Shown here one piece after another: positions 6,883 to 37,628 of a DNA stretch of 43,387 nucleotides. The translations under genes and the position numbers were made by a program. The stretch comes from Deltaproteobacteria bacterium (lineage in GTDB: Bacteria; Myxococcota_A; UBA9160; UBA4427). Every line of letters begins with the position of its first letter. Position 1 is the first letter of the stretch. Location of the stretch: assembly GCA_031390075.1 (NCBI GenBank), contig JANMTD010000621.1, positions 1 to 43,387 of the forward strand, in the 5' to 3' direction. A model generated the notes under the pieces. It did no database searches. It was given only the letters and a program-made list of their open reading frames with translations, and was not told where the DNA came from.

Positions 6883-7207
6883 CCTTTGGTCATCATCGCT
6901 TTCCATCAAAGAGGCATCGGATTTCACTGGAAGTATTTGCGAGAGATTTGCAAGACGGAGCCGGATCCACCGCTATTTTTCCGCAATCACCGCCCGCTCT
7001 TCGCCCGTTCATCCGCCTGATCATTCGGCGCTGCGCGGGACGCCCGTCGCAGTGGGCCGAATGCTTTTCGGGTTCGACTCCCCCCACTGGCTGAGTCTCG
7101 CCGTCGAGCGGACGGGCTTCCGGCTGCGGGGGTCGAGCGGCGGGTCCTTGAACGGCCGGGGAACGGGCGGGGAATGGACGGGGAATGAGAAGGGGAATGA
7201 ATTGGGC

Positions 7208-8164
7208 GTGAAAGAGATCAAGGCGAGCTTCGAGAGCAATGAGTGGGTGCTGATCCTCGGCGGGTCGAGCGGCTTCGGCCTCGCGACCGCGAAACGCTTC
7301 GCCCGGGGCGGCGTCAACGTGCTGATCGTCCACCGCGATCGCCGCGGCGCCATGGCCGCCATCGAGCCGCATTTCGAAGAGATCAAGAAGCTGGGACACG
7401 GCTTCCACACCTGGAACGCCGACGCGATCGAGGCCGCGAGCCGGACCGAGACCCTCGGCGAGATCGTGAAGGCGATCGGTCCGGAGGGCCGCATCAAGGT
7501 CCTCCTGCATTCGATCGCCTTCGGCAACCTGAAGCTGATCGCCCCCGAGAAGGTCGAGAGGCGCACCGCCGGCCCGAATCTCGCGCAACGCCTCGGCGTC
7601 GATGTGGCGAAGCTGACGGAGATCGCCGACGAGCTCTTCGAGGCCGGTGAAGACGGGCTCCATCCGCTGACCTCGGCGCCGACCTTCCCCGACAAGTCGT
7701 ATCTCGACGAAGAGGATTTCAGCCGCACGATCCTGGCGATGGGGACGAGCTTGCTCGGCTGGACCCAGGAGATCTTCACGCGGGAGATCTTCGCGAACGA
7801 CGCGCGCATCTTCGGTCTGACCAGTGAAGGCAACGAGGTCGCCTGGAAGGGCTATGCCGCCGTCTCGGCGGCGAAGGTCTCCCTCGAGGCGCTCTCGCGC
7901 TCGATCGCGCTGGAGTTCGGGCCCTATGGCATCCGCTGCAACGTGATCCAGGCCGGTGTCACGAACACGCCGGCGCTCCGGGCGATCCCGGGCAGCGACC
8001 AGCTGAAGAGCCAGGCGCGGCTCCGCAATCCGGGCGGGCGGCTCACGACCCCCGAGGACGTCGCGGGCGTGATCTTCCTGCTGTCGCAGCCCGAGGCCTC
8101 CTGGGTCAACGGCGAAACGATCCGCGTCGACGGCGGCGAACATATTTCCGGCTCGACGAAGTAG
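7208..8164 (+). CDS. FabI/FabL-type enoyl-ACP reductase-like SDR carrying an insertion of about 50 aa
   Basis: Rossmann motif 'ILGGSSGFGLATAKRF'. 'YAAVSAAK' is a Y-x6-K spacing, typical of enoyl reductases rather than the classical YxxxK. C-terminal 'VNGETIRVDGG'. GTG 7208 is preceded by aagggga. The track ORF start at 6851 overlaps dinG and has poor coding character up to 7207. Confidence 0.7.
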   Translation: MKEIKASFESNEWVLILGGSSGFGLATAKRFARGGVNVLIVHRDRRGAMAAIEPHFEEIKKLGHGFHTWNADAIEAASRTETLGEIVKAIGPEGRIKVLLHSIAFGNLKLIAPEKVERRTAGPNLAQRLGVDVAKLTEIADELFEAGEDGLHPLTSAPTFPDKSYLDEEDFSRTILAMGTSLLGWTQEIFTREIFANDARIFGLTSEGNEVAWKGYAAVSAAKVSLEALSRSIALEFGPYGIRCNVIQAGVTNTPALRAIPGSDQLKSQARLRNPGGRLTTPEDVAGVIFLLSQPEASWVNGETIRVDGGEHISGSTK

Positions 8165-8210
8165 TCGACCCTGGTAGTCGCAGGCGCGAGGACATTGACG
8201 TGAGGACGAC

Positions 8211-9212
8211 GTGGCGTTGAACCTGCTTGGGATCGGTCATTTCCATCCCGAGAACGAGATCACGAATCAGTTCCTCGAAGACCTCGACATTGGCACCAAT
8301 GACGAGTGGATCATGGAACGGACCGGGATCCGCTCGCGCCGCACGGCGCTGTCCCTCGATTACATCCGCACGACCCGCAACAGCGATCCCCGCGGCGCGA
8401 TCGAGGCCGCCGAGATCTCGAACGCCGAGATGGGCGCGCGGGCTGCCCGCATGGCGCTCGCCCGCGCCGGGATCGACGTCTCCGACATCGGGCTCCTGAT
8501 CGGCGGTGGCTGCGCGCCCAACACGGTGTCCCCGGCGGAGGCCTGCAACATCGGGGCGGCACTGGGCCTGCAGATGACGGGCTGCCTCGACATCAACTCG
8601 GCCTGTTCCTCCTTCATCGCCGGTGTCTACATGCTCTCGCTGATGGATCCGGCGAAGCTGCCCGACCACGTGCTGCTCGTGACGGCGGAGCCGATGACGG
8701 GGACCGTCGATTACAACGACCGTTCGGCGGCGGTGTTGTGGGGGGATGGCGCGCTGGCGGCCGTGTTCTCGCCGCGGCGGCAGGGCCGGGCGCAGCTGAT
8801 CGGCCAGCGCTTCGTCACCGATCCGGCGGGCCACGACAAGGTCGTCGTTCCGCGCCTGGGCCATTTCCATCAGGAAGGTCGCACGGTCCAGACCTTCGCG
8901 ATCCGCAAGACCTCCGATCTCCTGATCGAGACCCGCGACGTGTACGAGCAAGAGGGCCGCGCGTTCCATTTCATCGGCCACCAGGCGAACCGCCGCATGC
9001 TCGAGTCGGTCTGCAAGCGCTGCGATGTCCCCGAGGATCGCCACCACTCGAACTGCGAGTTCTTCGGCAACACGGCCGGGGCGAGCTCAGGCAGCGTCAT
9101 CTCCCAGCTCTGGGACAAGTGGACGCCCAAAGACGACATTTGCGTCGTCGGCGTCGGCTCGGGCCTCTCCTGGGGCAGCTATCTCATGCGCTTCGGCGAG
9201 ACGGACTCCTGA
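8211..9212 (+). CDS. fabH: 3-oxoacyl-ACP synthase III (FabH-like KAS III)
   Basis: 'DEWIMERTGIRSRR' is present. The Cys-His-Asn triad contexts are 'INSACSSF', 'GHQANRRM' and 'FGNTAGAS', plus 'GSGLSWG'. GTG start. Confidence 0.85.
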   Translation: MALNLLGIGHFHPENEITNQFLEDLDIGTNDEWIMERTGIRSRRTALSLDYIRTTRNSDPRGAIEAAEISNAEMGARAARMALARAGIDVSDIGLLIGGGCAPNTVSPAEACNIGAALGLQMTGCLDINSACSSFIAGVYMLSLMDPAKLPDHVLLVTAEPMTGTVDYNDRSAAVLWGDGALAAVFSPRRQGRAQLIGQRFVTDPAGHDKVVVPRLGHFHQEGRTVQTFAIRKTSDLLIETRDVYEQEGRAFHFIGHQANRRMLESVCKRCDVPEDRHHSNCEFFGNTAGASSGSVISQLWDKWTPKDDICVVGVGSGLSWGSYLMRFGETDS

Positions 9213-9255
9213 TCAGGCATAAGAAGGTTTCAGCCGTAAGAAGGTGAAGCGATCG

Positions 9256-9849
9256 ATGTTGACCCATGCCGAGTTCACGAGCCGCGCTGCGTTCGACCAG
9301 CAGGACCTGCTCGCCTTCGCCTACGGCCGTCTGATCAAGGACGCGCCGGAGGGATTCAAGGCGCGGCTGCCCGTGCCACCCATGTTGATGGTCGACCGGA
9401 TCGACCTCATCAGCGGCGAGAAGAGCCGCGGCAAGATCAGCGCCGCCCGCGACGTGCGCGTCGACGACTGGTTCTTCCATTGTCATTTCATCAGCGACCC
9501 GGTCCAGCCCGGCTGCCTCGGCCTCGACGGCGTCTGGCAGCTGCTCGGCTTCTACTGCAACTGGCGGGGCGGCGTCGGCGCCGGACGCGCGCTCGGGTGT
9601 GGCGAGGTCGAGTTCTTCGGCCAGATCCGGCCCCACGACAAGGTCATGCGCTACGAGGTCGACATCAAGCGCTACACCGAGCTCAAGAGCGCCGGCGCCT
9701 CGATGGTGATCGGCGACGCCCGCGTGCTGATCGACGACCAGGAGATCTACACCGTGAAGGGCGCCCGCGTCGGCCTCTTCCGCGACATCGACTACCCGGA
9801 CTATCCCTACGAATCTCCGAACTCCCGCGGCGGGAGGATGGAGCGATGA
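9256..9849 (+). CDS. fabA: 3-hydroxyacyl-ACP dehydratase / trans-2-decenoyl-ACP isomerase (FabA family)
   Basis: 'WFFHCHFISDPVQPGCLGLDGVWQLLGFY...GRALGCGEVEFFGQIRP' lines up closely with the E. coli FabA active-site block '[31 protein letters not shown]...GRALGVGEVKFTGQV'. ATG 9256 has the SD taagaaggtg; GTG 9244 is the alternative start. Confidence 0.85.
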   Translation: MLTHAEFTSRAAFDQQDLLAFAYGRLIKDAPEGFKARLPVPPMLMVDRIDLISGEKSRGKISAARDVRVDDWFFHCHFISDPVQPGCLGLDGVWQLLGFYCNWRGGVGAGRALGCGEVEFFGQIRPHDKVMRYEVDIKRYTELKSAGASMVIGDARVLIDDQEIYTVKGARVGLFRDIDYPDYPYESPNSRGGRMER

Positions 9850-10595
9850 GCGAGGCGAGCGACAAGCCGGTCGCCCTCGTGACGGGCGGCGGGACCGGGA
9901 TCGGCGCGGCCTGCTGCCGGCGCCTCGCGACCGAGGGATTCCGCGTCGGCATTCATTACCGCTCGAGCGAGGAGAAGGCGAAGAAGCTGGCGGACGAGCT
10001 GTCCTCGACGCCCGGCGGCGCGTTCCTCGTCAAGGCGGACCTGATGGATGCGGCGAGCCTCGACGGGCTCGTGGCAGAGCTGAAGGACGCGGCGGGGCGG
10101 GTCGACGTGCTCGTCAACAACGCGGGCTACAACGTGAACGCGCCGATGCTCGCCATGAACCTCGAGCAGTACGACGCCGTCGCCAGCGTGGCGCGCGGGA
10201 CCTGGTACCTGACGAAGCTCGTGCTGCGCCGCTTCATGCTCAGGCAGGGTACGGGTCGCATCATCAACATCTCGAGCGTCGTCGGCCACACCGGCAACGC
10301 CGGCCAGATCCCGTACACGATGGTGAAGGCGGGCCTCGACGCCTTCACGAAATCCCTCGCCCTGGAGCTCACGGGCCGCGAGATCCTCGTCAACGCCGTC
10401 GCTCCCGGCTTCATCGACACCGAGATGACCGACGAGCTCCCGGCCGAGATCAAGCAGGCCATTCTCGCCAAGATCCCGCTCTCCCGGATGGGGTCTGCCT
10501 CCGAGGTCGCCGACGTCGTGGCGTTCCTCGCGACCCGCGGCAGCTATATCCAGGGCAGTGTCCTCCACGTGAACGGAGGCATGTACGGTGGGTGA
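9846..10595 (+). CDS. fabG: 3-oxoacyl-ACP reductase (FabG)
   Basis: Motifs 'VTGGGTGIG', 'NNAG', 'ISSVVG', 'YTMVKAG' (YxxxK) and 'VNAVAPGFIDTEM'. The start overlaps the fabA stop as ATGA. Confidence 0.9.
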   Translation: MSEASDKPVALVTGGGTGIGAACCRRLATEGFRVGIHYRSSEEKAKKLADELSSTPGGAFLVKADLMDAASLDGLVAELKDAAGRVDVLVNNAGYNVNAPMLAMNLEQYDAVASVARGTWYLTKLVLRRFMLRQGTGRIINISSVVGHTGNAGQIPYTMVKAGLDAFTKSLALELTGREILVNAVAPGFIDTEMTDELPAEIKQAILAKIPLSRMGSASEVADVVAFLATRGSYIQGSVLHVNGGMYGG

Positions 10596-11046
10596 GACGC
10601 TCTCGATGCAGGAGGTGCTCGCGGCGGTGCCGCAACAGGCGCCCTTCCGCTTCATCGACGAGATCGTCGAGCTCGACCGCGAGCACATCGTCGCGCGCTA
10701 CACGTTCCCCCCCGACTCGGATTTCTACCGCGGCCACTTCCCGGGCAATCCGATCACCCCGGGCGTGATCCTGGTCGAGACCGCCGCCCAGGCGGCCGTC
10801 GTGGCCTTCGGCATCTACCTCTATACCCTCGAGACCTCGCGCGCCGAGCTCGAGAAGATCCTGACCATCTTCACGGACTGCGCCGTCGACTTTTGTGGAA
10901 GCGTCCGTCCCGGGGACCGCGTCACGACGACGGGGCGTGTCAAATTCTTCCGGAGAAAGAAGCTCCGGGCGTCCTTCGAGATGAAGCTCGACGACGGAAC
11001 GCTCGTCTGTTCCGGCGAGCTCTCGGGCATGGGAGTACCGCGATGA
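10588..11046 (+). CDS. fabZ: 3-hydroxyacyl-ACP dehydratase (FabZ family hot-dog)
   Basis: 'PFRFIDEIVEL...FYRGHFPGNPITPGVILVETAAQ' is the FabZ His/Glu motif. GTG 10588 has GGAGG 8 nt upstream and overlaps the fabG end; ATG 10606 is the alternative start. Confidence 0.85.
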   Translation: MGETLSMQEVLAAVPQQAPFRFIDEIVELDREHIVARYTFPPDSDFYRGHFPGNPITPGVILVETAAQAAVVAFGIYLYTLETSRAELEKILTIFTDCAVDFCGSVRPGDRVTTTGRVKFFRRKKLRASFEMKLDDGTLVCSGELSGMGVPR

Positions 11047-12353
11047 GCGGATCGAACGCACAAAATGCACAGAGCGCACGCAGACGGGTCGTCATCACGG
11101 GCCTCGGCGTCATCGCGCCGAATGGAAACGGCGTCGCCGAATTCGAGTTGGCGCTGCGCAAGGGTCGCTCGGGTCTCAAGACCCAGCAGTCGATGATCGA
11201 CGCGCAGTTCGGCTGTACCGTCGCCGGCACACCGACCGGTGTCGACGAGCTCTGCAAGGCGACCTTCAGCGAGGAGGAGCTCCTCGCGATGAACATGAAT
11301 CACCGTTATGCGAGCCTCGCCGCCCTCGAGGCCTGGCAGGACGCCGGCCTCGAGCGCCCGTCCCGCGACTCGGACATCGTCCATTGGGACACGGGCGCGA
11401 TCCTCGGCACCGGCATCGGCGGCATGGACACGATCGCCGAGAAGGTCGTTCCGTTCACCAACGCCGGGAAGGTCCGCCGCATGGGCTCGACCTCGGTCGA
11501 GCAGGTGATGGCCAGCGGGATCTCGGCCCGCATCTCGGGGCAGCTCGCCCTCGGCAATCAGGTGACGACGAACTCGAGCGCCTGCAGCACGGGGAGCGAA
11601 GCCCTGGTGATGGGCATGGAGCGGATCCGCGCCGGGCTCGCGACGCGCATGCTCTGCGGCGGCGCCGAGGCGGCGAGCCATTTCATCTGGGCGGGATTCG
11701 ACGCGATGCGCGTGCTCAATCGCGGCTCGAATGACGAGCCGGAGAAGGCGTCGCGACCGCTCTCGGCTTCAGCGGGTGGGTTCATCCCGGGGGCGGGTGC
11801 GGGCGTCGTGCTGCTCGAGAGCCTCGAGAGCGCGCTGGCTCGGGGTGCGCGGATTCATGCGGAGCTCGTCGGGGGCATGGTCAATTGCGGGGGCCACCGC
11901 ATGGGCGGCAGCATGACGTCGCCGAACCCCACGAGTGTCCAGCGCTGCATCACGGGCGCCCTGGCCGATGCGGGCGTGCAGCCCGAGCAGGTCGACGCCA
12001 TCAACGGCCACCTGACGGCGACCGGCGCCGACCCGAAGGAAGTCGACTCGTGGGCGAAGGCGCTCCACCGCAAGCCGGGCACGCTTCCGCCCATCACGGC
12101 CACGAAGAGCATGATCGGCCACGCCCTGGGTGCGGCGGGCGGGATCGAAGCGGTCGCCTCGGTGCTGATGGTCTCGCGCGGCTTCGTCCACCCCTCGATC
12201 AATTGCGAAGACGTGCATCCGGAGATCCAGATGCACGCGGCGTCGATCCCCCACGAGCTGCGCGAGCTCCCGGACCTCGACGTGCTGGTCAAGGCCGGCT
12301 TCGGCTTCGGGGACGTCAATGCCTGTCTGGTTTTCCGGCGCTATCGGGCGTAG
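11043..12353 (+). CDS. Beta-ketoacyl-ACP synthase I/II (FabB/FabF-like elongating KS)
   Basis: 'RRVVITGLGVIAPNG' is present. The Cys-His-His triad contexts are 'NSSACSTGSEAL', 'INGHLTATGAD' and 'KSMIGHALGAAG'. ATGA overlap with fabZ. Confidence 0.9.
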   Translation: MSGSNAQNAQSARRRVVITGLGVIAPNGNGVAEFELALRKGRSGLKTQQSMIDAQFGCTVAGTPTGVDELCKATFSEEELLAMNMNHRYASLAALEAWQDAGLERPSRDSDIVHWDTGAILGTGIGGMDTIAEKVVPFTNAGKVRRMGSTSVEQVMASGISARISGQLALGNQVTTNSSACSTGSEALVMGMERIRAGLATRMLCGGAEAASHFIWAGFDAMRVLNRGSNDEPEKASRPLSASAGGFIPGAGAGVVLLESLESALARGARIHAELVGGMVNCGGHRMGGSMTSPNPTSVQRCITGALADAGVQPEQVDAINGHLTATGADPKEVDSWAKALHRKPGTLPPITATKSMIGHALGAAGGIEAVASVLMVSRGFVHPSINCEDVHPEIQMHAASIPHELRELPDLDVLVKAGFGFGDVNACLVFRRYRA

Positions 12354-12432
12354 CCTCGGGGGGAACACGCTGACTTCTCCTGACTTCGGAGAGGTTGGCC
12401 GGGGACCGAATCACAGGAGAGGAGCAGAGCGG

Positions 12433-12678
12433 ATGGACCGAGCGGAAGTGATGGATCGCGTCGTGAAGATTCTTACGCCCTGGGTGAAGGACGAAGCGGC
12501 GTTGGCGAAGGTTTCGATGGAGACGAACATCCTCGAGGATCTCAAGGTCAACTCGGCGCGGCTCGTGGACGTCGTGATCGCCTTCGAGGACGACTTCGAC
12601 ATCGAGATCGCGGACGAGGACGTCGACCAGGTCAATACCGTGGGTGACGCGGTGAATCTGATCTCGGGCAAGCTCTAG
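12433..12678 (+). CDS. Acyl carrier protein (dedicated, atypical NSA attachment motif)
   Basis: The 81-aa acidic protein is MDRAEVMDRVVKILTPWV...LEDLKVNSARLVDVVIAFEDDFDIEI. The Ser sits at the position of the DSL phosphopantetheine site. An aggaga SD lies upstream of ATG 12433. Confidence 0.8.
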   Translation: MDRAEVMDRVVKILTPWVKDEAALAKVSMETNILEDLKVNSARLVDVVIAFEDDFDIEIADEDVDQVNTVGDAVNLISGKL

Positions 12679-12753
12679 GCCGGCGAGATCGAACCGAGCG
12701 TCGAACATCCCACTCATTCAACTTACTTCGACGGAGTTCGACGGAGCACTCCA

Positions 12754-13566
12754 GTGGAGCAGGACGTCGTGAGCGGTGGGGAGCTGCAGCCGGACCGAGA
12801 GACCGTGATCCGAAATGCGCTGCGCGCGGATCCCGGGATGGTGCGCCGGCACGCGCGTCAGCGACTCGTCAGCCTGGTGGCGGGCCCGATCTGGGTCGGG
12901 GTCTCCGTGCTCGTGATGCGCTTCTATTTCCGGTACCGGATCTCCGACGTGAAGCGCATCCGGGCGAGCTATCGCCGGATCCGCGCCGAGTCGAAGGCGC
13001 CGCTGCTCCTCTGCGCGAACCATCTTACGATGGTCGACTCGTTCCTGATCGCCTGGGCACTGGGCTCGGGCTCCTACTGGCTCTTCCATCCGGACGAGCT
13101 GCCCTGGAACACGCCCGAGCAGAAGAATTGGGGGCGCACGCGCCTTCAGCGCATTCTCCTCTTCGTCGCGAAATGCATTCCGATCACCCGCGGCGGCGCG
13201 CGGGAGGAAGTGGGCGATGTGCTCGAGCGGGTGAAGTACCTGGTGGCCCGGGGCGAGACCGTCTGTCTCTTTCCCGAGGCGGGCCGCAGCCGCTCGGGCC
13301 GCGTCGAGGAGAACGCCGCTGCCTGGGGTGTCGGCCGGGTCGTCGGGGCGGTGCCCGGTTGTCGCGTGCTCTGCATCTATCTGCGGGGCCGGGCGCAGCT
13401 GACCTGGGGAAATTGGCCCGCGAAGGGCGACACGCTCGACGTGTCGATCGCCGCCATCGAGCCCAAGAGCGATTCGCGCGGCGTGCGGCGCTCGCGGGAC
13501 CTCGCGCAGCAGATCGTGCGCCAGCTGATGCGGATGGAAGAGGAATATTTCGATGCTCGGAAATGA
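12754..13566 (+). CDS. PlsC/LPLAT-family lysophospholipid (1-acylglycerol-3-phosphate-type) acyltransferase
   Basis: HX4D motif 'CANHLTMVDS' and motif III 'FPEAGRSRSG'. An N-terminal hydrophobic segment (LVAGPIWVGVSVLVM) is present. The start is uncertain (GTG 12754 or ATG 12838). Confidence 0.75.
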   Translation: MEQDVVSGGELQPDRETVIRNALRADPGMVRRHARQRLVSLVAGPIWVGVSVLVMRFYFRYRISDVKRIRASYRRIRAESKAPLLLCANHLTMVDSFLIAWALGSGSYWLFHPDELPWNTPEQKNWGRTRLQRILLFVAKCIPITRGGAREEVGDVLERVKYLVARGETVCLFPEAGRSRSGRVEENAAAWGVGRVVGAVPGCRVLCIYLRGRAQLTWGNWPAKGDTLDVSIAAIEPKSDSRGVRRSRDLAQQIVRQLMRMEEEYFDARK

Positions 13567-14368
13567 CGTCGTCGATCTCGAGGACGTCGATGCCCGGCCC
13601 GAGACTTTTCACCAACGCTTCGAGCGGCGGGTTTTCGCCGACGCGGAGCGCCGGGCGATCGCCGAGGCCGAAGATCCGCAGGCCTGCCGCTGGGCCCACT
13701 GGGGCGCGAAGGAAGCCGCCTACAAGCTGGCGCGGCAGCGCGACCCGGGCTTCGTCTTTTCCCCGATCAAGCTCGTCGCCCATTTCGAGCCGCGCGCCTC
13801 GCGGCAGAAGCGGGGCGCCGCAGACGGACAGCTCGAACGCCGGGGTCGGCTCACACTCGCCGCAGGCCCGCAGGAGGCCGCGATGACGGTCGAGCTCCGG
13901 AGCTTCGAGACCGGGCAATTCGTGCACGTCGTGGCACTGCCGGCGGGCTCCGATTGGGGGGCCGTCGCGATGGCGGTCGACGGGCTCGGGCTCGGCGAGG
14001 GCGCGCAGGACCCGGGGCTCGCGGTGCGGCGGCTCGCGCTGCGCGCGATCGCCCGCGAGCTCGGTGTCGATTCCGCGCGCCTCTCGATCGGCCGGCGGGG
14101 TCGCATTCCGACGGTCGAGCTCGACGGACAGACGACGAAGCTCTCGCTCTCGCTCTCGCACCACGGGCGTTTCGTCGCCTTCGCCTTCAGACTGGGCTTC
14201 GTCCTCTCGCCGCGCGGACGCGGGGTGGGCGGTGTGCGGGGCGAGGCGGCCGGGCTCGGCGCTGGCCCGGAACATGAAGAGCGGGATCACGAAGAGGAAG
14301 TCACGCAATCGGCCGGGACGGTGGGGTACCCGGTCGCTTGGGCGGACACAGAATGGATGGCGGGATGA
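13553..14368 (+). CDS. 4'-phosphopantetheinyl transferase (AcpS-like core with a long C-terminal extension)
   Basis: 'GNDVVDLEDV' is the AcpS-type Mg-binding start. 'HWGAKEAAYK' matches the PPTase W/FxxKEA motif, and 'LSLSHHGRFVAFAF' is present. It overlaps the upstream gene by 14 nt and the downstream start as ATGA. Confidence 0.7.
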   Translation: MLGNDVVDLEDVDARPETFHQRFERRVFADAERRAIAEAEDPQACRWAHWGAKEAAYKLARQRDPGFVFSPIKLVAHFEPRASRQKRGAADGQLERRGRLTLAAGPQEAAMTVELRSFETGQFVHVVALPAGSDWGAVAMAVDGLGLGEGAQDPGLAVRRLALRAIARELGVDSARLSIGRRGRIPTVELDGQTTKLSLSLSHHGRFVAFAFRLGFVLSPRGRGVGGVRGEAAGLGAGPEHEERDHEEEVTQSAGTVGYPVAWADTEWMAG

Positions 14369-17300
14369 CGAACGTGAGCGAGACGAAGAAACCGGCGGAG
14401 ACTCGGCGCATCGAGCGGCTCGCGATCGTGAATCGCGGAGAGGCAGCCGTGCGCTGTCTGCGGACCGCCAAGAGCCTGCGCGAGCGGGAGGGCGGTGGTC
14501 TCGAGGTGATCGCCCTGTTCACGGCGCCCGACCGCAACACACCCTTCGTTCGCCAGGCCGACCGCGCCTTCCTCATGCCCTCGCCGCGGGGCGCCGTCGC
14601 AAGCTACCTCGACCACGACGGCGTGATCGCCGCCCTGAAGGAAGCACGCGCCGACGCGGTCTGGCCCGGCTGGGGCTTCGTGGCGGAAGATCCGGTCTTC
14701 GTCGATCGCCTGGATGCCGAGGGCATTCTCTTCCTCGGGCCGAGCGCCGACGCGATGCGCGCCCTCGGCGACAAGATCCAGTCGAAGCTCTTCGCCGAGA
14801 AGGCCGGTGTTCCCGTCTCGCCCTGGAGCGGAGGCGCGCTCGCCGACGAGAAGGAAGCGCTCGAGCACGCGCAGCAGATCGGTTTCCCCGTCGTCCTCAA
14901 GGCGACGGCGGGCGGCGGCGGCCGCGGCATCCGGATCGTCGAGCAGCCCGAAGGCCTGGCCGAGGCGTTCCGCTCCGCCACCGCCGAGGCGACCGCGGCC
15001 TTCGGCAACGGCACCCTCTTCGTCGAAGCCATGATCCAGGGAGGCCGACACATCGAAGTGCAGGTCGCCGCCGACAAACACGGCCACGCCCGCGCCTTCG
15101 GTTGCCGCGACTGCTCGGTCCAGCGCCGCCACCAGAAGGTCGTCGAGGAGGCGCCGCCGCCGGGCCTCTCCGATGCCGTGCTCGAGCGCCTCGAAAACGC
15201 GGCGACGAACCTCGTCCGCCACGTCGGCTACTGCGGCGTCGGCACGGTCGAGTTCCTCCTGAGGGGCGAGGACTTCTACTTCCTTGAGGTGAACCCGCGC
15301 CTGCAGGTCGAGCACGGCCTGACCGAGCTGATCGCCGGCATCGACCTCGTCGAGATCCAGATCCGCATCGCCCGCGGCGAGTCGATCGAGGGCATCGAGC
15401 GCAAGCGCCGGGGCGTCGCCCTCGAGGCGCGGGTCTGTGCCGAGGATCCGGACGAGGGCTTCCTGCCTTCGCCGGGCCGCATCGCGCTCTTCGAGCCCGC
15501 GCTCGGTCCCCATACCCGCGTCGATTCCGGGGTCACGACCGGGACCGTCATCTCGTCGGATTTCGATTCACTGATCGCGAAGGTCATCACGGTCGGCGAA
15601 GACCGGCAGGAATCGATCGCACGGCTCGCCTGCGCACTGCGCGACTTCGAGCTCGTCGTCGAGGGCGGGGCCACCAACAAGGGCTATCTGCTCGACATCC
15701 TCGCGGCCCCCGATTTCCAGGCCGGCGGCGTCGATACACGCTGGCTCGACCGCTTCAGCGCCGAGCGGACGAGTCTCGCCGAATCCCTGCCCGAGCTCGC
15801 GCGCGACGCGCTCGTCGGTGCCGCGATCCTCTCCTACCAGCGGACGCGGGCGACGCTCCGCACGGGCGTGTTCGGGGGCCAGGGAATCGGCGTTCGCCTG
15901 CCCGCCTCCGAGGGTCAGCAGATCGATCTCTCGTTCGGCGGCGAGAGCTACCGGCTCAAGGTCTACGCGATCGGCTCCTGGCGCTACCGCGTCCACCTCG
16001 ACGGCGTCGCCGTCGGCGCCATGATGCGCGAAGAGGGCACGCATGCCGCGCGCCTCGTGATCGACGATCGCGTCCGCCGCATCCACTACGACATCAACGA
16101 CCGCGGTCTGCGCCTCGAGGTCGACGGCCACCCACTGCGTTTCAGCTCCCAGACGGCGGGCCAGGTGCGTGCCGGCTCCCCGGCCGTCGTCGTGACGCTG
16201 CATGTCGAGCTCGGCGCGACGGTGTCGGCGGGTCAGTCGCTGGGCCTGCTCGAAGCGATGAAGATGGAGATCGGCTTCCAGGCGCCGGTCGCCGGCACGG
16301 TGAAGGAGATCCTGGTCCACAAGGGTCAGCAGGTCGCGGCGGGCGACGTGATCCTCGTGATCGAGGAGGCGGCGGACGATGTGGGGACTCCCCGCGACCG
16401 CGTTCGGATCGGCCTGCCGGTCCAGGCCGATCCGCTGGCCTCGCTCTTCCGCGAGAAGGCGGAGCGCCCGCTCGGTATTCCCGATCTCCTCGCAGCCGAC
16501 AACGCGAATCTCGCCGAGCGGCGCGTCGCGATCGACGCGGCCCGCGAGGAGATCCGGCGCGTGCTGCTCGGCTACGACGTGAATCCCGACCGCTCGGACT
16601 CGCTGGCCGCATTCCTCGAGGCGTCGATTCCGGAGACGATCTCCGACGGCTTCCGGCGGGAGCTCTCCGAGATCCGCCACGAGCTGACGACCTTCGCCGA
16701 CGTCGAGGTGCTCACGATCCGGGCGCCGTCCGCTTCGATCTCGGGACAATCGGGGCCGTCGAACAGCGCGCGACTGCGCATGTACGTTCGGCGCGTCGAG
16801 GCCGAAGGCTCGGGCATCGACGACGACTACCTCGGTCTCGTCAAGGCGGCGCTGGCCCATTACGGCGTGCCCGACCTTCAGCCTTCCGACGCGCTGCGGC
16901 GCGCGCTGCTGCGACTGCTGACCTGTGAGGCCGGTCGTTCGGCGCGCCTCGTCCTCGTGCTCGGCATCCTGCGCCGCATCACGGCGCTGGCGCAGCTCGA
17001 CATCTTCATGGGCGACGACGAGCGCCTCGAGCGCGCGCTCCACCGTATCGCGCGCATGCGGCCGCAGGTGACGGACGCCGTCGCCGATGCGGCCCTCGAG
17101 GCGTCCTACGTCATCTTCCAGCAGCCCGGCATCGAAGAGCGAGCGCGTCGATCGTCCGGCTCGGTCGAGCGCTGGCTCGCCCAGGCGGAAGTCGATCTCG
17201 TGGCACCGCCGACCGGCGTGCTGCTCGAAGTCGCCTCGTCGCCGCGGCTCGTCTTCGAGCGCGTCGGGCGTTGGATCGGCGGCGAGGATTCGAATCGCCG

Positions 17301-19992
17301 CGTGATCGCCCTGGCCGCCCACGTCCAGCGCCGTTATGCGCCGATCATTCCCGAGGCCTACCGCGCCGTGCGCGTCGACGGCGAGCCGATCCACTGCGTC
17401 GAGTACAAGGATCGGGGCGTCGTCCTCGCCGCGACGGGCAGTCCGGCGGAGGCGGCCGTCTGGATGGACCGCCTCATGCGCGGCGCCGAGTCCCTGCGCG
17501 AGCGGGATCCGTCGACTCCGATCGTGGCGCTCGAATACCTGATTCCGTCCGGGACGGGCGTCGACTGGGATGTGCTCTTGTCGCAGATCGAGGACGCCTA
17601 TCGCGAGCGCGAATTCGATTGGCGGATCACGTTCGGCTCGCTCACGCCCGACGGCGAGGGCGACATCTACCGCACGCTCGTGCGGCGAAACGGCCGCCTC
17701 GAGCAGGCGATCGAGCACTACGACCTCCATCCCGAGACCGCCAAGCGCATCGCACTCGACCGTTATGTCGCGTTCGACCTCGAGCGGCTGCAGTCGGAGG
17801 AGGGCATCTACGCCTTTCATGGGCGCGCGAAGAACGCGCCCGGGGACGAGCGGATCTTCGTGCTCGCCGACGCCCGCGACCGCTCGCCCGAGCCCGGCCG
17901 CGAGCTGTACCACCACCTCGCGACCTTCGAGCGCGTCTTCAACCGCGCCGCGCGAAGGCTCCGCACGATCCTCCAGATCCATGATCCACGCCGAAGGCTG
18001 CAGTGGAATCGGATCGCGATCTTCGTCGCGCCCTCGATCTTCATCGAGCCCGAGGTCGCGAACGACATCGCGCGGCGGCTCGCGCCGGCGACCCGGCATC
18101 TCGGCCTGGAGAAGGTCGTGGTCCGACTCAACCGGCTCGACCGGGCACAGCCCGACGGTCCCGCTTCGCCCTACGAGCTCGTCATCAGCGACACGGGCGA
18201 GCAGCTCGAGCTCGTCTGGCGTGAGCCGCATGACGAGGCGCTCCTGCCCGCGCAGGAGTACGAGCGCAAGGTCGTCTCCGCGCGCCATCGCCGGCTCATC
18301 TATCCGTACGAGATCGTGAAGATGCTGACCTCCGACTCCCCCGATTCGCCAGAGGCGTCGGGGGGCGAGGGCTCCTTCGAGGAGTTCGATCTCGATCCGA
18401 AGAGCCCGCGCCCGGTCGCGCAGAGCGTCGCGGACCGGCCCTACGGCCAGAACAGGGCGGCGGTGGTCTTCGGTCTGATCCGGACGCCGACCGAGAAGGT
18501 GCCGGAGGGGATGCTGCGCGTCCTCGTGCTCTCGGATCCGACGATGGGAATGGGCGCGCTGTCGGCGCCGGAATGCGATCGGCTGGTCGCGGCCTTCGAT
18601 CTGGCGGAGTCGCTCGGCGTTCCGCTCGAGTGGGTTCCCGTCTCGTCGGGCGCCAAGATCGCGATGGACAGCGGGACCGAGAACCTCGACGCGACGGCCC
18701 GCGTCGTGCGCCGGATCGTGACCTTCACGCAGGCCGGTGGCATCGTGAACATCATCGTCCAGGGCGTCAACGTCGGCGCCCAGAGTTACTTCGACGCGCT
18801 CGCGACGATGCTGATGCACACGAAGGGCGTCCTCATCATGACGCAGACCGCGTCGATGGTGTTGACGGGACGCGCGGCCCTCGAGGCCTCGGGCGCGGTG
18901 TCGGCGGAGGACGAGATCGCGATCGGCGGCTTCGAGCGGATCATGGGTCCGAACGGCGAGGCGCAGTACTACGCGCGCAGCCTGGTCGACGCCTATCGCA
19001 TCCTCTACGAGCACTACCGCTTCAGCTACGTCGTCCCGGGCGAGAGCGGCCCGCGGCTGCTCGCGACCCGCGACGAGCGCCATCGCTCGATCGCGACGAG
19101 CCCCCTCGCTCCCGGCGACGCGGATGGCCTCACGACGGTCGGCGAGCTCTTCGACGACGAGACGAATCCCGGTCGCAAGCGGCCGTTCGCGATGCGGGCG
19201 GTGATGCGGGCCCTCGTCGACATCGACGGCGGCTTCCTCGAGCGCTGGAACGCCTGGGTCGGGGGCGAGACGGCGATCGTGTGGGACGCCCATATTGGGG
19301 GCCTGCCAATCACGTTGATCGGGATCGAGAGCCGCAACGTGCCGCGGGACGGCTTCCATCCGGCGGATGGTCCCGAGGCCTGGAACGGTGGCACGCTGTT
19401 TCCGCAGTCGTCGAAGAAGGTCGCGCGGGCGATCAACGCGGCGTCGGGGAACCGGCCGGTCGTCGTGCTCGCGAATCTCTCGGGCTTCGACGGGTCGCCG
19501 GAATCGCTGCGCAAGATCCAGCTCGAGAACGGCGCGGAGATCGCGCGCGCGGTCGTGAACTTCCGCGGGCCCGTCTACTTCGCGGTCGTCTCGCGGTATC
19601 ACGGCGGCGCCTACGTCGTGTTTTCGCAGGAGCTGAACGACGAGCTGAAGGCGGTGGCGCTGACGGGCTCGTACGCGTCGGTGATCGGCGGAGGTCCGGC
19701 GGCGGCGGTCGTGTTCAGCCGCGAGGTGGCGGCGCAGGCCCTCGACGATCCGCGTGTGAAGGACCGGTCCGATCTCGTCCGGCGCCATCCGACCGAGGAG
19801 AACCGCGCCGCCCTCGATGCGGTCCTGCGGGAGGTCACGCTCGAGAAGCAGGCCTCGCTCGCGGCGGAGTTCGATGCGATCCACAACGTCGAGCGCGCGC
19901 GCCAGGTCGGCTCCCTGTCGGAGATCCTCGAGCCCGCGAATCTGCGTGCGGCGCTGATCGAGTCGCTCGAGCTCTCTCGCCGCGGCTTGTGA
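14365..19992 (+). CDS. Single-chain multidomain biotin-dependent acyl-CoA carboxylase (BC - BCCP - central region of about 600 aa - CT)
   Basis: Biotin carboxylase/ATP-grasp motifs 'GFPVVLKATAGGGGRGIRIV' and 'EVNPRLQVEHGLTE'. Biotinyl motif 'LLEAMKMEI', with the Lys codon at 16261-16263. Carboxyltransferase region from about 18.4 kb ('VLSDPTMGMGALS...VSSGAKIAMDSG...LTGRAALE'; 'ANLSGFDGSPESLR'). One uninterrupted ORF. ATG 14365 is assumed as the start; ATG 14353 and TTG 14338 are alternatives. Confidence 0.85.
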   Translation: MTNVSETKKPAETRRIERLAIVNRGEAAVRCLRTAKSLREREGGGLEVIALFTAPDRNTPFVRQADRAFLMPSPRGAVASYLDHDGVIAALKEARADAVWPGWGFVAEDPVFVDRLDAEGILFLGPSADAMRALGDKIQSKLFAEKAGVPVSPWSGGALADEKEALEHAQQIGFPVVLKATAGGGGRGIRIVEQPEGLAEAFRSATAEATAAFGNGTLFVEAMIQGGRHIEVQVAADKHGHARAFGCRDCSVQRRHQKVVEEAPPPGLSDAVLERLENAATNLVRHVGYCGVGTVEFLLRGEDFYFLEVNPRLQVEHGLTELIAGIDLVEIQIRIARGESIEGIERKRRGVALEARVCAEDPDEGFLPSPGRIALFEPALGPHTRVDSGVTTGTVISSDFDSLIAKVITVGEDRQESIARLACALRDFELVVEGGATNKGYLLDILAAPDFQAGGVDTRWLDRFSAERTSLAESLPELARDALVGAAILSYQRTRATLRTGVFGGQGIGVRLPASEGQQIDLSFGGESYRLKVYAIGSWRYRVHLDGVAVGAMMREEGTHAARLVIDDRVRRIHYDINDRGLRLEVDGHPLRFSSQTAGQVRAGSPAVVVTLHVELGATVSAGQSLGLLEAMKMEIGFQAPVAGTVKEILVHKGQQVAAGDVILVIEEAADDVGTPRDRVRIGLPVQADPLASLFREKAERPLGIPDLLAADNANLAERRVAIDAAREEIRRVLLGYDVNPDRSDSLAAFLEASIPETISDGFRRELSEIRHELTTFADVEVLTIRAPSASISGQSGPSNSARLRMYVRRVEAEGSGIDDDYLGLVKAALAHYGVPDLQPSDALRRALLRLLTCEAGRSARLVLVLGILRRITALAQLDIFMGDDERLERALHRIARMRPQVTDAVADAALEASYVIFQQPGIEERARRSSGSVERWLAQAEVDLVAPPTGVLLEVASSPRLVFERVGRWIGGEDSNRRVIALAAHVQRRYAPIIPEAYRAVRVDGEPIHCVEYKDRGVVLAATGSPAEAAVWMDRLMRGAESLRERDPSTPIVALEYLIPSGTGVDWDVLLSQIEDAYREREFDWRITFGSLTPDGEGDIYRTLVRRNGRLEQAIEHYDLHPETAKRIALDRYVAFDLERLQSEEGIYAFHGRAKNAPGDERIFVLADARDRSPEPGRELYHHLATFERVFNRAARRLRTILQIHDPRRRLQWNRIAIFVAPSIFIEPEVANDIARRLAPATRHLGLEKVVVRLNRLDRAQPDGPASPYELVISDTGEQLELVWREPHDEALLPAQEYERKVVSARHRRLIYPYEIVKMLTSDSPDSPEASGGEGSFEEFDLDPKSPRPVAQSVADRPYGQNRAAVVFGLIRTPTEKVPEGMLRVLVLSDPTMGMGALSAPECDRLVAAFDLAESLGVPLEWVPVSSGAKIAMDSGTENLDATARVVRRIVTFTQAGGIVNIIVQGVNVGAQSYFDALATMLMHTKGVLIMTQTASMVLTGRAALEASGAVSAEDEIAIGGFERIMGPNGEAQYYARSLVDAYRILYEHYRFSYVVPGESGPRLLATRDERHRSIATSPLAPGDADGLTTVGELFDDETNPGRKRPFAMRAVMRALVDIDGGFLERWNAWVGGETAIVWDAHIGGLPITLIGIESRNVPRDGFHPADGPEAWNGGTLFPQSSKKVARAINAASGNRPVVVLANLSGFDGSPESLRKIQLENGAEIARAVVNFRGPVYFAVVSRYHGGAYVVFSQELNDELKAVALTGSYASVIGGGPAAAVVFSREVAAQALDDPRVKDRSDLVRRHPTEENRAALDAVLREVTLEKQASLAAEFDAIHNVERARQVGSLSEILEPANLRAALIESLELSRRGL

Positions 19993-20005
19993 GCCGGGCG
20001 GGGGA

Positions 20006-20962
20006 ATGGCTCTCGGGGACGAGCGGGCGTCGCGCGGGGACGGGCTCGTCAGCGGACTGCTCGCCGGGCTGACCTGGCTCTGCGAGCACATATCGATCGA
20101 GCGGTCGCTTGCCTTCGCCGCGGCGTTCGGCCGGCTCTGGGTCCGCGTCGGCGCTCCGCGCACGCGCCGGGTCGACGCGGCCCTCGCACGCGCGCTGCCC
20201 GAGCTCGCTGCGGGCGAACGCGCGCGCGTGACGCGCGAGGTCTTCGTCCATCTCGCGCAGGGGCTGGTCGAGCTCCTGCTGCTGCGCGGCGGCCGGCGTG
20301 CGGAGCTGCTCGCGCGGGTCGAGATCTCGGGCCTCGAGCAGATCGCCGAGGCATCGCGGGCGACGCCCTCGGGCGGGGTCCTCGTCGTGACGGCCCACCT
20401 CGGCAATTGGGAGCTCGCCTGCGCCAAGGTCGCGGCCCTCGGCTTTCCCGTCTCGGTCGTCTACCGCGGGCTACGCCATTCCGCCCTCGACCGCGCGCTC
20501 GTCAAACTTCGGGGTCGGGCGGGCAGCGAGCCTGGCGGAGTCCCGGTCGAGCAGATCAAGCTCGGGCGCGCGGGGCTGCCGGTCGTGCGCGCCCTCGAGG
20601 CGGGGCGCAACGTGCTCGTCTTGCTCGACCAGAACGCGGGGCGCGAAGAGGGCGTATTCGTCCAGTTCTTCGGGCAGGCGGCGTGTACGCGTTCCGGGCC
20701 GGTGGCCCTCGCGGCGCTTCGGGGCCATCCGGTCGTGCCGGCCTTCATCCACCGCGAGGCGGGCGGCCTGCGGCACCGCATCGAGATCCAGCCGGCCCTC
20801 GCCCTCGAACCGGGCGCCGCGGAGGATGAGGAGATCCTGCGCCGGAACGTCGAACGGGTGACCGGCGCGATCGAGGCGGCGATCCGGGCGTGGCCCGGCC
20901 AGTGGACCTGGACCCATCGGCGCTGGCGAACCCGGCCGCCGGGAGCCGGCGGGGCCGGGTGA
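20006..20962 (+). CDS. LpxL/HtrB-family (lipid A biosynthesis lauroyl/myristoyl-type) acyltransferase
   Basis: 'VVTAHLGNWELA' is the HX4E catalytic motif of the family. 'LLDQN' and the C-terminal 'PGQWTWTHRRWRT' are also present. Confidence 0.8.
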   Translation: MALGDERASRGDGLVSGLLAGLTWLCEHISIERSLAFAAAFGRLWVRVGAPRTRRVDAALARALPELAAGERARVTREVFVHLAQGLVELLLLRGGRRAELLARVEISGLEQIAEASRATPSGGVLVVTAHLGNWELACAKVAALGFPVSVVYRGLRHSALDRALVKLRGRAGSEPGGVPVEQIKLGRAGLPVVRALEAGRNVLVLLDQNAGREEGVFVQFFGQAACTRSGPVALAALRGHPVVPAFIHREAGGLRHRIEIQPALALEPGAAEDEEILRRNVERVTGAIEAAIRAWPGQWTWTHRRWRTRPPGAGGAG

Positions 20963-21061
20963 GGCCCCGATCGGGCGGATTGCGAGGGCCCGAGCGCGTG
21001 TGTGATGATCCCCCACTCACCCGCCGCCCGAAGGCCTGGATTCAGGGTCGAGGAACACCTC

Positions 21062-22315
21062 ATGTCCCCCACCGATTCGCCCGCGGCTCCCGTGCCTGCG
21101 TTGGCCGCCCCGTCCCGGGCGGAGGCGGAGCGCTGGGTCGCCGATGTCGTGAGTGGAGGCGAGTTTGCGCCGGATCGGGCCGAGGCCCTCGGCGCCTCGC
21201 TCCGCAACGCGGGGATCCGCGACGTGCTCGCGGCGGGCGCGACGGAGATCAAACGAAAACAGACGGGCCAGCGCGTCACGGTCTCCCGCAACATCTTCAT
21301 CCCGCTGACCAATCTCTGCCGCAACCGCTGCTCCTACTGCACCTTCGCGAAGCTGCCGGATTCCCCCGAAGCCCATACCTACAGCCTCGACGAGGTCGAG
21401 GAGGTCGTGCGCGGCGGCGTCGCGACGGGCTGCATCGAGGTCTTGATGTGTCTCGGCGACAAGCCCGAGGTGGCCTACGGGAGCTACCGCGAGCAGCTCG
21501 CCGAGCGCGGCTTCTCGAGCACGTCGGAGCTGCTCTTCGAGGCGTGCCGCCGGGCCGTCGCCCTCGGCATGCTGCCGCATACCAACGCCGGCATCCTGAC
21601 GCGCGAGGAGCTGCAGCGGCTGCGGCCTGTCAATGCGTCGATGGGGCTGATGCTCGAGACGACGAGCCGACGGCTGCGCGAAAAGGGTGGACCCCATTTC
21701 CACGCCCCCGACAAGGAGCCCTCCGTCCGCATCCGCATGCACGAGATCGCGGGCGAGCTCAAGATCCCCTTCACGAGCGGCATGCTGCTCGGCATCGGCG
21801 AGAACGACGCCGAACGTGTCGACACGCTCCGCACGATCGCCGATCTCGCGCGCCGCTTCGGCCACATCCAGGAAGCGATCATCCAACCCTTCCACCCCAA
21901 GCCGGGGACGAAGATGCGCGCGGCCTCGTCTCTCGACGACGACATCGTGGTCGGTTGGGTGGCGCTCGCGCGGCTGATCCTGCCGCCCGCGGTCCACGTC
22001 CAGGCCCCGCCGAACCTCGGCTCGAACATGCTGCCGCGACTGCTCGCGGCGGGGGTCGACGATTGGGGCGGTGTATCGCCCGTGACCGTCGACTTCATCA
22101 ATCCCGAGGCGCCGTGGCCGGCGCTCCACCAGCTGCGCAAGGAGACGGAGGCCGCAGGCTTCGAGCTCCGGGAGCGCGGACCCGTCTATCCCGAGTGGAT
22201 TCTCGAGAAGCCCGATTTCTTCGACCCGCAGGTGCGGGCTCTGCTGCCCAGCTACGCCAACGACGAGGGCTATGCGCAGCGGAAAAACGACCAGTCCAAC
22301 GAGGAGGCCGCCTGA
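21062..22315 (+). CDS. cofG: FO (7,8-didemethyl-8-hydroxy-5-deazariboflavin) synthase subunit 1, radical SAM CofG
   Basis: Radical-SAM motif 'CRNRCSYC', with 'VLMCLGDKPE', 'LPHTNAG', 'IQPFHPKPGT' and 'DDWGGVSPVT'. ATG 21062 has a gagga SD. Confidence 0.8.
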   Translation: MSPTDSPAAPVPALAAPSRAEAERWVADVVSGGEFAPDRAEALGASLRNAGIRDVLAAGATEIKRKQTGQRVTVSRNIFIPLTNLCRNRCSYCTFAKLPDSPEAHTYSLDEVEEVVRGGVATGCIEVLMCLGDKPEVAYGSYREQLAERGFSSTSELLFEACRRAVALGMLPHTNAGILTREELQRLRPVNASMGLMLETTSRRLREKGGPHFHAPDKEPSVRIRMHEIAGELKIPFTSGMLLGIGENDAERVDTLRTIADLARRFGHIQEAIIQPFHPKPGTKMRAASSLDDDIVVGWVALARLILPPAVHVQAPPNLGSNMLPRLLAAGVDDWGGVSPVTVDFINPEAPWPALHQLRKETEAAGFELRERGPVYPEWILEKPDFFDPQVRALLPSYANDEGYAQRKNDQSNEEAA

Positions 22316-22316
22316 C

Positions 22317-25450: not shown

Positions 25451-25485
25451 TCAGGGTCCAGAAGCTCGGAGGTTTTTTGGCTCTT

Positions 25486-37497: not shown

Positions 37498-37628
37498 CGG
37501 AGGCCCGCCTGATTCCCGTCTAGCGGCGCTATCGCGTGCGTTTACAACACCTGCGATCGTCCCCTCGCGCTCGCCCGTCGCCCGATTCGATCGGTTACCC
37601 TGCCCCGAAGTCGGCGCGAGGAGGGCGG

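Follow-up and report, generated by a model that had tools for sequence, protein, structure and literature searches.

The window analysed here, the whole 43,387-nucleotide stretch of contig JANMTD010000621.1 (assembly GCA_031390075.1, a Deltaproteobacteria bacterium), has a G+C content of about 68-70% and carries, between positions 7208 and 20962, eleven open reading frames (ORFs) that together resemble a type II fatty acid synthase (FAS II) equipped with its own acyl carrier protein (ACP) and its own carboxylase. All eleven are intact and lie on the forward strand, at the coordinates given by the original prediction, which had been made from the DNA letters and had described a self-contained operon of this kind. 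Domains were assigned by searching the proteins of the window with Pfam and NCBIfam profiles, with the NCBIfam equivalog cut-offs as thresholds for family membership. The genes of the operon and the spacer that precedes them are as follows:

6883..7207, + strand: spacer of 325 nt between the gene for a DinG-like helicase and the first gene of the operon, likely the promoter and leader region
7208..8164, + strand: enoyl-ACP reductase (ER), a short-chain dehydrogenase/reductase (SDR) of the FabL/FabI type, with Y216-x6-K223
8211..9212, + strand: 3-ketoacyl-ACP synthase III (KAS III, FabH-like), the initiating condensing enzyme, with the triad C132/H257/N287
9244..9849, + strand: FabA-type 3-hydroxyacyl-ACP dehydratase, possibly an isomerase, with H81 and D95
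9846..10595, + strand: FabG-type 3-oxoacyl-ACP reductase, scoring 250 with TIGR01830 against a cut-off of 298
10588..11046, + strand: FabZ-like dehydratase of the anammox "amxFabZ" kind, with H50/E64, Val71 and Cys103
11043..12353, + strand: elongating ketosynthase (KS), with the triad C181/H323/H360 and a GFGD gating loop
12433..12678, + strand: private ACP of 81 residues, with Ser41 within the motif DLKVNSARLVDVV
12754..13566, + strand: acyltransferase of the PlsC/LPLAT family, with H90-x4-D95, the block FPEAG and a single hydrophobic segment at the N-terminus
13553..14368, + strand: AcpS-type 4'-phosphopantetheinyl transferase (PPTase), with GNDVVDL, WxAKEAAYK and LSLSHHG (Pfam ACPS, 6e-10)
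14365..19992, + strand: single-chain eukaryote-type carboxylase of 1875 residues, made up of biotin carboxylase (BC), BT, biotin carboxyl carrier protein (BCCP), central and carboxyltransferase (CT) parts
20006..20962, + strand: late acyltransferase of the LpxL/HtrB family, with H131LGNWE

Stop and start codons overlap as ATGA at 9846, 11043 and 14365, a 14-nt overlap lies at 13553-13566 and a 13-nt gap at 19993-20005; to these junctions, all of which had been reported before, we add an 8-nt overlap of FabG and FabZ at 10588-10595. Every catalytic motif checked across the operon proteins is intact, including the biotinyl-lysine K633 of the carboxylase, and the start of the ER is uncertain by a few codons (GTG at 7208 or TTG at 7202). 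With the eleven ORFs, the junctions and the catalytic motifs all present, the gene content and the domain calls of the original prediction were confirmed. No outstanding terminator-like site was found inside the operon, where terminator and promoter scans gave results at or below chance, and shuffled sequence folds at least as well as the spacers on either side of the ACP gene. The LpxL gene is probably co-transcribed with the operon in the window. As had also been predicted, neither FabD nor a thioesterase is encoded in the window (by Pfam, and for FabD also by tblastn).

The proteins that always travel together among the related loci described below are those furthest from the housekeeping families. 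The ACP is 35% identical to E. coli AcpP, falls below all of the NCBIfam ACP cut-offs (best score 55.7 against 70) and has the phosphopantetheine motif NSA, not DSL; its helix II reads DLKVNSARLVDVV in 50 of 50 orthologues, compared with DLGADSLDTVELV in canonical ACPs, and on this identity and invariant helix its description as private and non-canonical holds. Its best solved match is the ACP of B. subtilis, and it is more like ordinary ACPs than like amxACP, the carrier protein of the anammox cluster. The family is large, with 1983 clusters at 90% identity in public data. The PPTase has the three AcpS motifs plus an insertion of 70-100 residues and is fast-evolving, and no solved relative of it was detectable by sequence.

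The FabZ-like protein, which scored 70 against an NCBIfam cut-off of 113, has as its best solved relatives the amxFabZ structures 7QV0 and 8AYB. In amxFabZ, Ile69 stands where canonical FabZ has a tunnel glycine and Ser/Thr96 where it has Lys/Arg, and the Scalindua enzyme acts on a substrate carried by amxACP but not on one carried by canonical ACP, with a preference for chains of up to C8 (PMC10139942). The same two features, a bulky aliphatic residue at 69 and Ser/Thr at 96 in Scalindua brodae numbering, characterize the proteins studied here: the tunnel position is V, L, M or I in 48 of 48 orthologues (Val71 in the window), and the ACP-binding Lys/Arg position is S or T in 47 of 48, the window itself having Cys103. 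From this resemblance one might speculate that the module makes short or medium chains.

For the KS, identity to both FabF and FabB was about 35% and the NCBIfam score 298 against a cut-off of 494. Its gating loop reads GFGD in place of GFGG, with Asp at the Gly402 hinge invariant in 50 orthologues; the hinge role of the GFGG loop in ketosynthases has been described previously (PMC7138838). Within residues 418-426 of the window protein, Ala also replaces the flanking Asn396, in addition to the change of Gly402 to Asp. The GFGD loop may be the mark of a distinct KS subfamily.

FabA, FabG, KAS III and the FabL-like ER are closer to canonical families than these core proteins, and it is these genes, too, whose presence varies or which stay behind when the core is lost. 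KAS III scored 203 against the FabH cut-off of 249, and FabA was the sole protein of the operon above an NCBIfam equivalog cut-off (NF003509, 206.9 against 124). The best solved relative of the ER is B. subtilis FabL, relative to which it has an insertion of about 90 residues, and an orthologue has been named "enoyl-ACP reductase FabI" by NCBI. With an ACP of 35% identity to AcpP bearing NSA rather than DSL, no FabD, and canonical equivalog scores reached by FabA only, the cluster departs from canonical FAS II, and the layout is, as first stated, not that of plsX-fabH-fabD-fabG-acpP-fabF. The window shares with the E. coli FabA/FabB pathway a FabA-clade dehydratase (His + Asp) near an elongating KS with an intact triad, but this KS is not a FabB orthologue (244 against the FabB cut-off of 630).

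The carboxylase, described at first as a giant single-chain biotin carboxylase, is indeed present but is no oddity, being one of a large family of eukaryote-type multidomain acetyl-CoA carboxylases (ACCs). It is a protein of about 205 kDa with the order BC-BT-BCCP-central-CT, in which BC occupies residues 16-466, BCCP 600-667 (with K633 in EAMKME), the central region about 710 residues and CT 1381-1871. The N-terminal 660 residues align end to end with the alpha subunits (BC-BT-BCCP) of propionyl-CoA and methylcrotonyl-CoA carboxylases (PCC and MCC), and the best solved relatives of the CT part are the CT domains of yeast and human ACC (1e-16), with AccD5 following at 6e-10. The ACC_central family (PF08326) was matched in 14 of 20 family members (best E-value 3.2e-8), and weakly by the window protein alone (0.015, residues 1119-1230). 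When the central and CT parts were searched against 1.84 billion representative proteins, 622 representatives were found at E-values up to 1e-30, most of them 1750-1910 residues long, so the ACC type is common and already known in kind; it also occurs in other clades without FAS genes.

The characterized precedent is SACE_4237 of Saccharopolyspora erythraea, a homodimeric multidomain ACC that carboxylates acetyl- and propionyl-CoA and is essential (PMC6491548). Compared by way of its published description, SACE_4237 shares with the window ACC a size of about 200 kDa in one chain, the domain order BC-BCCP-central-CT, a central region homologous to that of eukaryotic ACC and membership in the large bacterial family of 1750-1910-residue proteins, and in each the CT appears closest to the CT of eukaryotic ACC. 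The window protein differs in coming from Myxococcota rather than Actinobacteria, in being fused into a FAS operon, and in its BC half, which is nearer to PCC/MCC alpha subunits than to eukaryotic ACC. The substrate is probably acetyl-CoA. We also considered LCC, another single-chain bacterial biotin carboxylase, which is a hexamer of about 120-kDa chains with the order CT-BC-BCCP and without a central domain (PMC6491548); the size of 205 kDa, the BC-BCCP-central-CT order and the central domain of the window protein rule this identity out.

To follow the cluster across genomes, we scanned one genome per GTDB species with the C-terminus of the ACC and found relatives in at least 521 genomes. 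The best 80 of these matches were 61-95% identical and all came from uncultured metagenome-assembled genomes (MAGs) labelled Myxococcota, Deltaproteobacteria, Polyangiaceae, Binatia or, in some evidently mislabelled cases, Spirochaetaceae. The labels "Spirochaetaceae" or "Spirochaetales" were found on L009, L014, L015, L019, L022, L023, L029, L030, L041, L044, L045, L054, L075 and L083, and one MAG so labelled has an isolate name containing "MYXO"; such labels on loci of the Myxococcota type look like a systematic taxonomy-label error.

When the window proteins were mapped onto the ACC loci, 63 species-level loci had enough upstream DNA to be informative. The scored core (KAS III, FabZ, KS, ACP and the PlsC-like enzyme) was found in full directly upstream of the ACC in 47 of the 63, while five held a core remnant and eleven no core gene. 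Recurrence in 47 species-level genomes takes the arrangement far beyond chance, and the core of the synteny that the original prediction had proposed to look for is found in uncultured MAGs of the Myxococcota type. The PPTase sits between PlsC and the ACC in every locus where it could be scored, which bears out the claim that it is dedicated to the cluster. Identities across loci were 64-99% for the ACP, 62-93% for the KS and 30-58% for the PPTase. Our literature search found no published description of this gene combination, which the original prediction had not recognised as a described system either, and the cluster is real, well conserved and widely distributed and appears to be uncharacterised.

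The accessory genes vary more. Among the 47 core-bearing loci, FabG is absent from 10, the ER from 14 and FabA from 8; the window type with ER, FabA and FabG accounts for 17 loci, FabA with FabG for 12, ER with FabA for 8, ER with FabG for 8 and FabA alone for 2. No FabD was found by tblastn in the window or in 87 related loci. Because FabG, the ER or FabA is missing from whole clades, and FabD from all of them, the module depends on enzymes encoded elsewhere, so that "self-contained", the term first applied to it, suits the window clade and a few others, without FabD even there. The absence of FabA from 8 of the 47 loci likewise means that the module is not defined by unsaturation. On the tree of the ACC CT domain, which we used for clade assignment, the accessory-gene types are clade-specific and the full cluster is probably ancestral.

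The same tree places joint losses of ACP, PPTase, KS and FabZ from the locus, with the ACC kept, in at least four clades: L028 with L044; L055, where the 3.67-Mb chromosome CP070734.1 begins; L058 with L063, L087 and L081; and a Polyangiaceae-labelled clade. L028 and L044 lack the PlsC-like gene in addition, and some of these clades still hold KAS III, PlsC, FabG or the ER. In L058 and L087, KAS III and PlsC abut each other and the ACC, which indicates that two separate segments were cleanly removed. Two minimal remnants were seen as well, a lone FabZ-like gene directly upstream of the ACC in L069 (6145-6693) and a lone KAS III in the same position in L081 (5625-6608), there preceded by a gene for an 828-residue alpha/beta-hydrolase; such loci suggest that the cluster decayed step by step while the ACC was kept. 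Variable neighbours of the loci were considered as clues to the product and rejected, since Met aminopeptidase, FolB, a CLC channel, Lnt, a GH94 protein and sulfite reductase are unrelated housekeeping functions. The GH94 protein (cellobiose/cyclic-glucan phosphorylase-like, 1868 residues) is encoded in L025 at 16451-22057 on the reverse strand, about 4 kb downstream of the ACC, and is apparently unrelated to the operon.

Based on these data, we consider it somewhat more probable than its alternatives taken together that the operon is a second, dedicated FAS II module, orthogonal to the canonical synthase of the cell, and the suggestion of a "specialised second FAS" is in this sense plausible. 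The most economical view, resting on homology and gene order, is of a dedicated module comprising the private ACP, the AcpS-like PPTase, KAS III, the atypical KS, the amxFabZ-type dehydratase and the PlsC-family acyltransferase, joined in one operon with a generic FabG, a FabL-like ER, FabA and the eukaryote-type ACC of the cell. Such a module would probably run beside canonical FAS II and be kept separate from it by altered interfaces between the ACP and its enzymes.

We infer each step of the following scheme from homology. The PPTase would convert the apo-ACP to the holo form at Ser41, the carboxylase would provide malonyl-CoA, and a FabD encoded elsewhere would load malonate onto the private ACP. 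KAS III would then prime the chain, and elongation would proceed through the KS, FabG, FabZ or FabA, and the ER, with FabA allowing a cis double bond to be introduced; in the window clade, the presence of FabA would thus allow a cis-unsaturated chain. The PlsC-like enzyme, presumed to be the off-loading enzyme, would finally take the completed chain off the private ACP and pass it to a lyso-glycerolipid or comparable acceptor, and the conservation of this acyltransferase points to a glycerolipid or another lyso-lipid as the acceptor.

Neither the window nor the 87 loci, a sample of about 0.4% of each genome, gave a tblastn match to E. coli AcpP, FabD, AccA or AccD, a negative that is uninformative at this coverage. 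Several observations weigh against a second synthase. KAS III and the PlsC-like enzyme survive where the private ACP has been lost, and so are not strictly tied to it. The cluster proteins are conserved as well as, or better than, DnaA or CofH. The housekeeping neighbourhood around the cluster (DinG ... CofGH-DnaA) is inherited vertically, the cluster contains no tailoring, export or thioesterase genes, and its ACC is of a type that is the essential housekeeping enzyme in the sole organism studied.

Much of this would be expected if the cluster were instead the only FAS of the organism, a divergent and unusually organised housekeeping FAS II spread across the Myxococcota radiation, with ACC, AcpS, PlsC and LpxL gathered in an origin-proximal lipid super-operon and FabD and some of the FabG and ER genes elsewhere. 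The position between DinG and CofGH-DnaA is kept between loci with ACCs of only about 60% identity, the ranges of identity of the ACP and KS speak of strong purifying selection, and the content (ACC, AcpS-type PPTase, PlsC and LpxL) is that of primary metabolism; the lack of tailoring and export genes and the essentiality of SACE_4237 in Saccharopolyspora erythraea also favour this explanation, as does the way in which ER and FabG, or KAS III and PlsC, stay beside the ACC in reduced loci, like scattered housekeeping genes. We nevertheless regard a sole FAS as distinctly less probable than a second one. AcpP is a conserved protein in general, and a housekeeping ACP only 35% identical to it, with NSA for DSL, would be exceptional. 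The KS is far below the FabF/FabB cut-offs and departs from GFGG at the hinge, the same substitutions are seen in the FabZ as in the orthogonal anammox enzyme, and Polyangiaceae-labelled MAGs without the cluster nest inside the ACC tree. Moreover, the ACP and PPTase, with PlsC between them, were both lost together with the KS and FabZ in several independent clades, and the joint removal of these four genes makes loss a simpler explanation than repeated relocation. That this large uncultured Myxococcota radiation has replaced the near-universal AcpP-based FAS II altogether by a system of NSAR-type ACP, amxFabZ-type dehydratase and GFGD-KS, fed by a eukaryote-type single-chain ACC and all located beside the replication origin, is in our judgement unlikely, a little more so than the sole-FAS explanation in its general form.

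The original prediction had further proposed that the acyl chain would be delivered to lipid A and/or a lysophospholipid, with the LpxL homologue serving lipid A in analogy to the rhizobial acpXL-fabZXL-fabF2XL-fabF1XL-adhA2XL-lpxXL cluster. AcpXL and LpxXL do provide a precedent for a private ACP serving lipid A, the HLGNWE motif is intact in the window protein, and LpxL lies 13 nt past the ACC in the window and 12-131 nt past it in 16 related loci. This adjacency, however, was found in the window clade only. In the sister clade (L006) the ACC is followed by FolB and LpxL, L028 and L044 read Map, FolB, LpxL, and elsewhere LpxL is separated from the ACC by FolB or others or was not detected in the vicinity; in L028 and L044, moreover, LpxL is kept although ACP, KS, FabZ, PlsC and PPTase are all gone. 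This persistence without the core makes LpxL a member of the origin-proximal neighbourhood and not of the FAS unit. Its adjacency in the window is best explained, from the gene orders compared, by loss of the intervening genes, and it is most likely an ordinary late acyltransferase of lipid A. With LpxL outside the unit, neither the acpXL analogy nor a path leading from the private ACP to lipid A keeps its main support, and since the acyltransferase conserved with the core is the PlsC-like enzyme, delivery to lipid A was not upheld.

The comparison with the rhizobial cluster is a loose one in other respects too. The two clusters share a private ACP, a FabZ and a KS of their own and an LpxL-family acyltransferase nearby, and both depend on housekeeping FabD and reductases, but the window cluster contains a single KS instead of a pair, has no adh gene and does not have LpxL as a conserved member, while it adds KAS III, FabA, the PPTase, the PlsC-like enzyme and the ACC and gives no indication of very long chains. 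Membership in the acpXL/lpxXL family, whose product is the very-long-chain fatty acid of lipid A, was rejected for want of the tandem KS pair, the adh gene and a conserved LpxL, and we think it improbable that an acpXL-like system here delivers its chain mainly to lipid A. Another partial likeness is to the fabD-acpM-kasA-kasB-accD6 operon of M. tuberculosis, which encodes a FAS II for meromycolate that works beside another FAS. It, too, combines a dedicated ACP, an elongating KS and a carboxylase component in one FAS II operon, but it includes FabD, two KS and only the CT subunit of a carboxylase, and it is without a PPTase, KAS III, dehydratases, reductases or an acyltransferase.

For the dehydratase a closer precedent than acpXL is the anammox "ladderane" FAS cluster amxACP-amxFabZ-FabF2-FabF (Kuenenia kuste3603-3608; Scalindua Scabro02230/02231). 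Like the window cluster, it is a second FAS II-like set with its own ACP whose product is unproven, and for the anammox pair orthogonality to canonical ACP has been shown experimentally (PMC10139942). Radical-SAM and phytoene-desaturase-like genes belong to the clusters of anammox bacteria and Desulfotalea (PMC2649909). The window cluster has neither a B12 radical-SAM gene nor a phytoene-dehydrogenase-like gene and has one KS instead of two, whereas it adds KAS III, FabA, FabG, the ER, the PPTase, the PlsC-like enzyme and the ACC; its host lineage is distinct from anammox bacteria and has no anammox metabolism. True membership in the ladderane clusters was therefore rejected, the defining B12 radical-SAM and phytoene-dehydrogenase-like genes and the two FabF homologues being absent. 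Clusters called "ladderane" by antiSMASH, to which no function has been assigned, are nevertheless reported from Myxococcota and other non-anammox MAGs, with a suggested part in fatty acid synthesis (PMC9902471, PMC11968836), and given its amxFabZ-type dehydratase the window cluster may be one source of such calls.

Such reports, together with the amxFabZ-like dehydratase, the ApeI/ApeP-like Pfam matches of FabZ in precomputed annotation and the combination of a dedicated PPTase with no FabD that is seen in type II polyketide synthase (PKS) clusters, could be taken to mean that this is a type II PKS/FAS of the secondary-metabolite kind (aryl-polyene, ladderane or polyunsaturated-hydrocarbon) with a specialised product not destined for the membrane. 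We regard this as very improbable. Most loci encode a full reducing cycle with an ER, there is one KS and no chain-length-factor partner, and none of the variant loci has a radical-SAM, phytoene-desaturase-like, thioesterase, LolA/MMPL exporter, ammonia-lyase or glycosyltransferase gene beside the FAS genes; the radical-SAM genes downstream are bona fide CofG and CofH, and inheritance is vertical across the lineage, not sporadic. Membership among the aryl-polyene and flexirubin clusters in particular was rejected on the single KS and single ACP, the presence of an ER and the absence of a chain-length factor, a thioesterase and LolA/MMPL. The cluster thus lacks the defining genes of both the aryl-polyene and the acpXL-type families, either of which, according to the original prediction, would have made it a member of a known family.

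The surroundings of the operon are those of a housekeeping region. Upstream lie genes for a thiamine pyrophosphate (TPP) enzyme and the DinG-like helicase, and downstream CofG (406 against a cut-off of 213) and CofH (471 against 374), followed by dnaA on the opposite strand; scores above the equivalog cut-offs identify CofG and CofH as FO synthase and not as lipid radical-SAM enzymes. The separate cofG and cofH genes (21002-23564), for the FO synthase of F420/FO deazaflavin, stand directly upstream of dnaA, and the conservation of the CofGH-DnaA order in many related MAGs implies deazaflavin synthesis in the lineage. DnaA (23561-25450, reverse strand) has 629 residues, with a long low-complexity linker rich in Ala, Ser, Arg and Gly between its N-terminal and AAA+ domains, and its Pfam ATPase domain match is split into two stretches; consensus DnaA boxes (TTATCCACA, up to one mismatch allowed) were not seen to cluster in the adjacent spacer at 25451-26053. 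The rest of the window is ordinary housekeeping, for example ThiC, chorismate synthase, YchF and Tgt. A second SDR of 433 residues at 37536-38837, with an N-terminal extension of about 175 residues that has no Pfam match, is positionally unrelated to the operon. Proteins identical to those of the window occur in fragmentary MAGs such as GCA_031430935.1, and close relatives are labelled as Myxococcota or Deltaproteobacteria MAGs.

In the spacer region between DinG and the ER, a weak sigma-70-like site was found at 6869-6896. The spacer is otherwise divergent from that of L007, a locus related at 88%, but shares with it two blocks, at 6938-6953 and 7071-7087, namely TGCGAGAGATTTGCAA (with TTGC..GCAA symmetry) and the T-arm-like GGTTCGACTCCCCCCAC, which might serve as an operator or promoter element or else be a remnant. 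Despite the T-arm-like GGTTCGACTCCCC, ARAGORN found no tRNA in the spacer region, and Rfam gave no match at the gathering threshold in the window, nor at E-values up to 1 in 6700-7400. An 11-nt tandem repeat, GGGGAAYGnnn, is present in 4-5 copies at 7150-7211 and reaches the start codon of the first gene, its last copy doubling as a Shine-Dalgarno-like GGGGAA; the near-identical contig L001 has fewer copies, so that copy number differs between close strains.

What appears to be new in these data is the joining of a dedicated, private-ACP type II FAS to a multidomain ACC, the ACC type itself being already known. The occurrence of eukaryote-type single-chain ACCs across Myxococcota widens a family that has so far been discussed as actinobacterial and bears on the debate over the origin of eukaryotic ACC, and the cluster may explain some of the puzzling "ladderane" calls in non-anammox genomes. 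If the cluster were the sole FAS, it would represent a rare wholesale replacement of the canonical AcpP system. If it is a second, orthogonal FAS, it would be the second natural case, after anammox, of ACP-enzyme interfaces rewired to separate two type II synthases, and such interfaces would be useful for engineering orthogonal FAS and PKS pathways. With the ACC in at least 521 species-level genomes, the private ACP in some 2000 clusters at 90% identity, and carrier bacteria in marine, sediment, soil and sludge samples, a second FAS would mean that widespread uncultured Myxococcota keep a dedicated line of acyl-chain synthesis whose lipid product has never been seen, and which could be a lineage-specific membrane lipid or biomarker.

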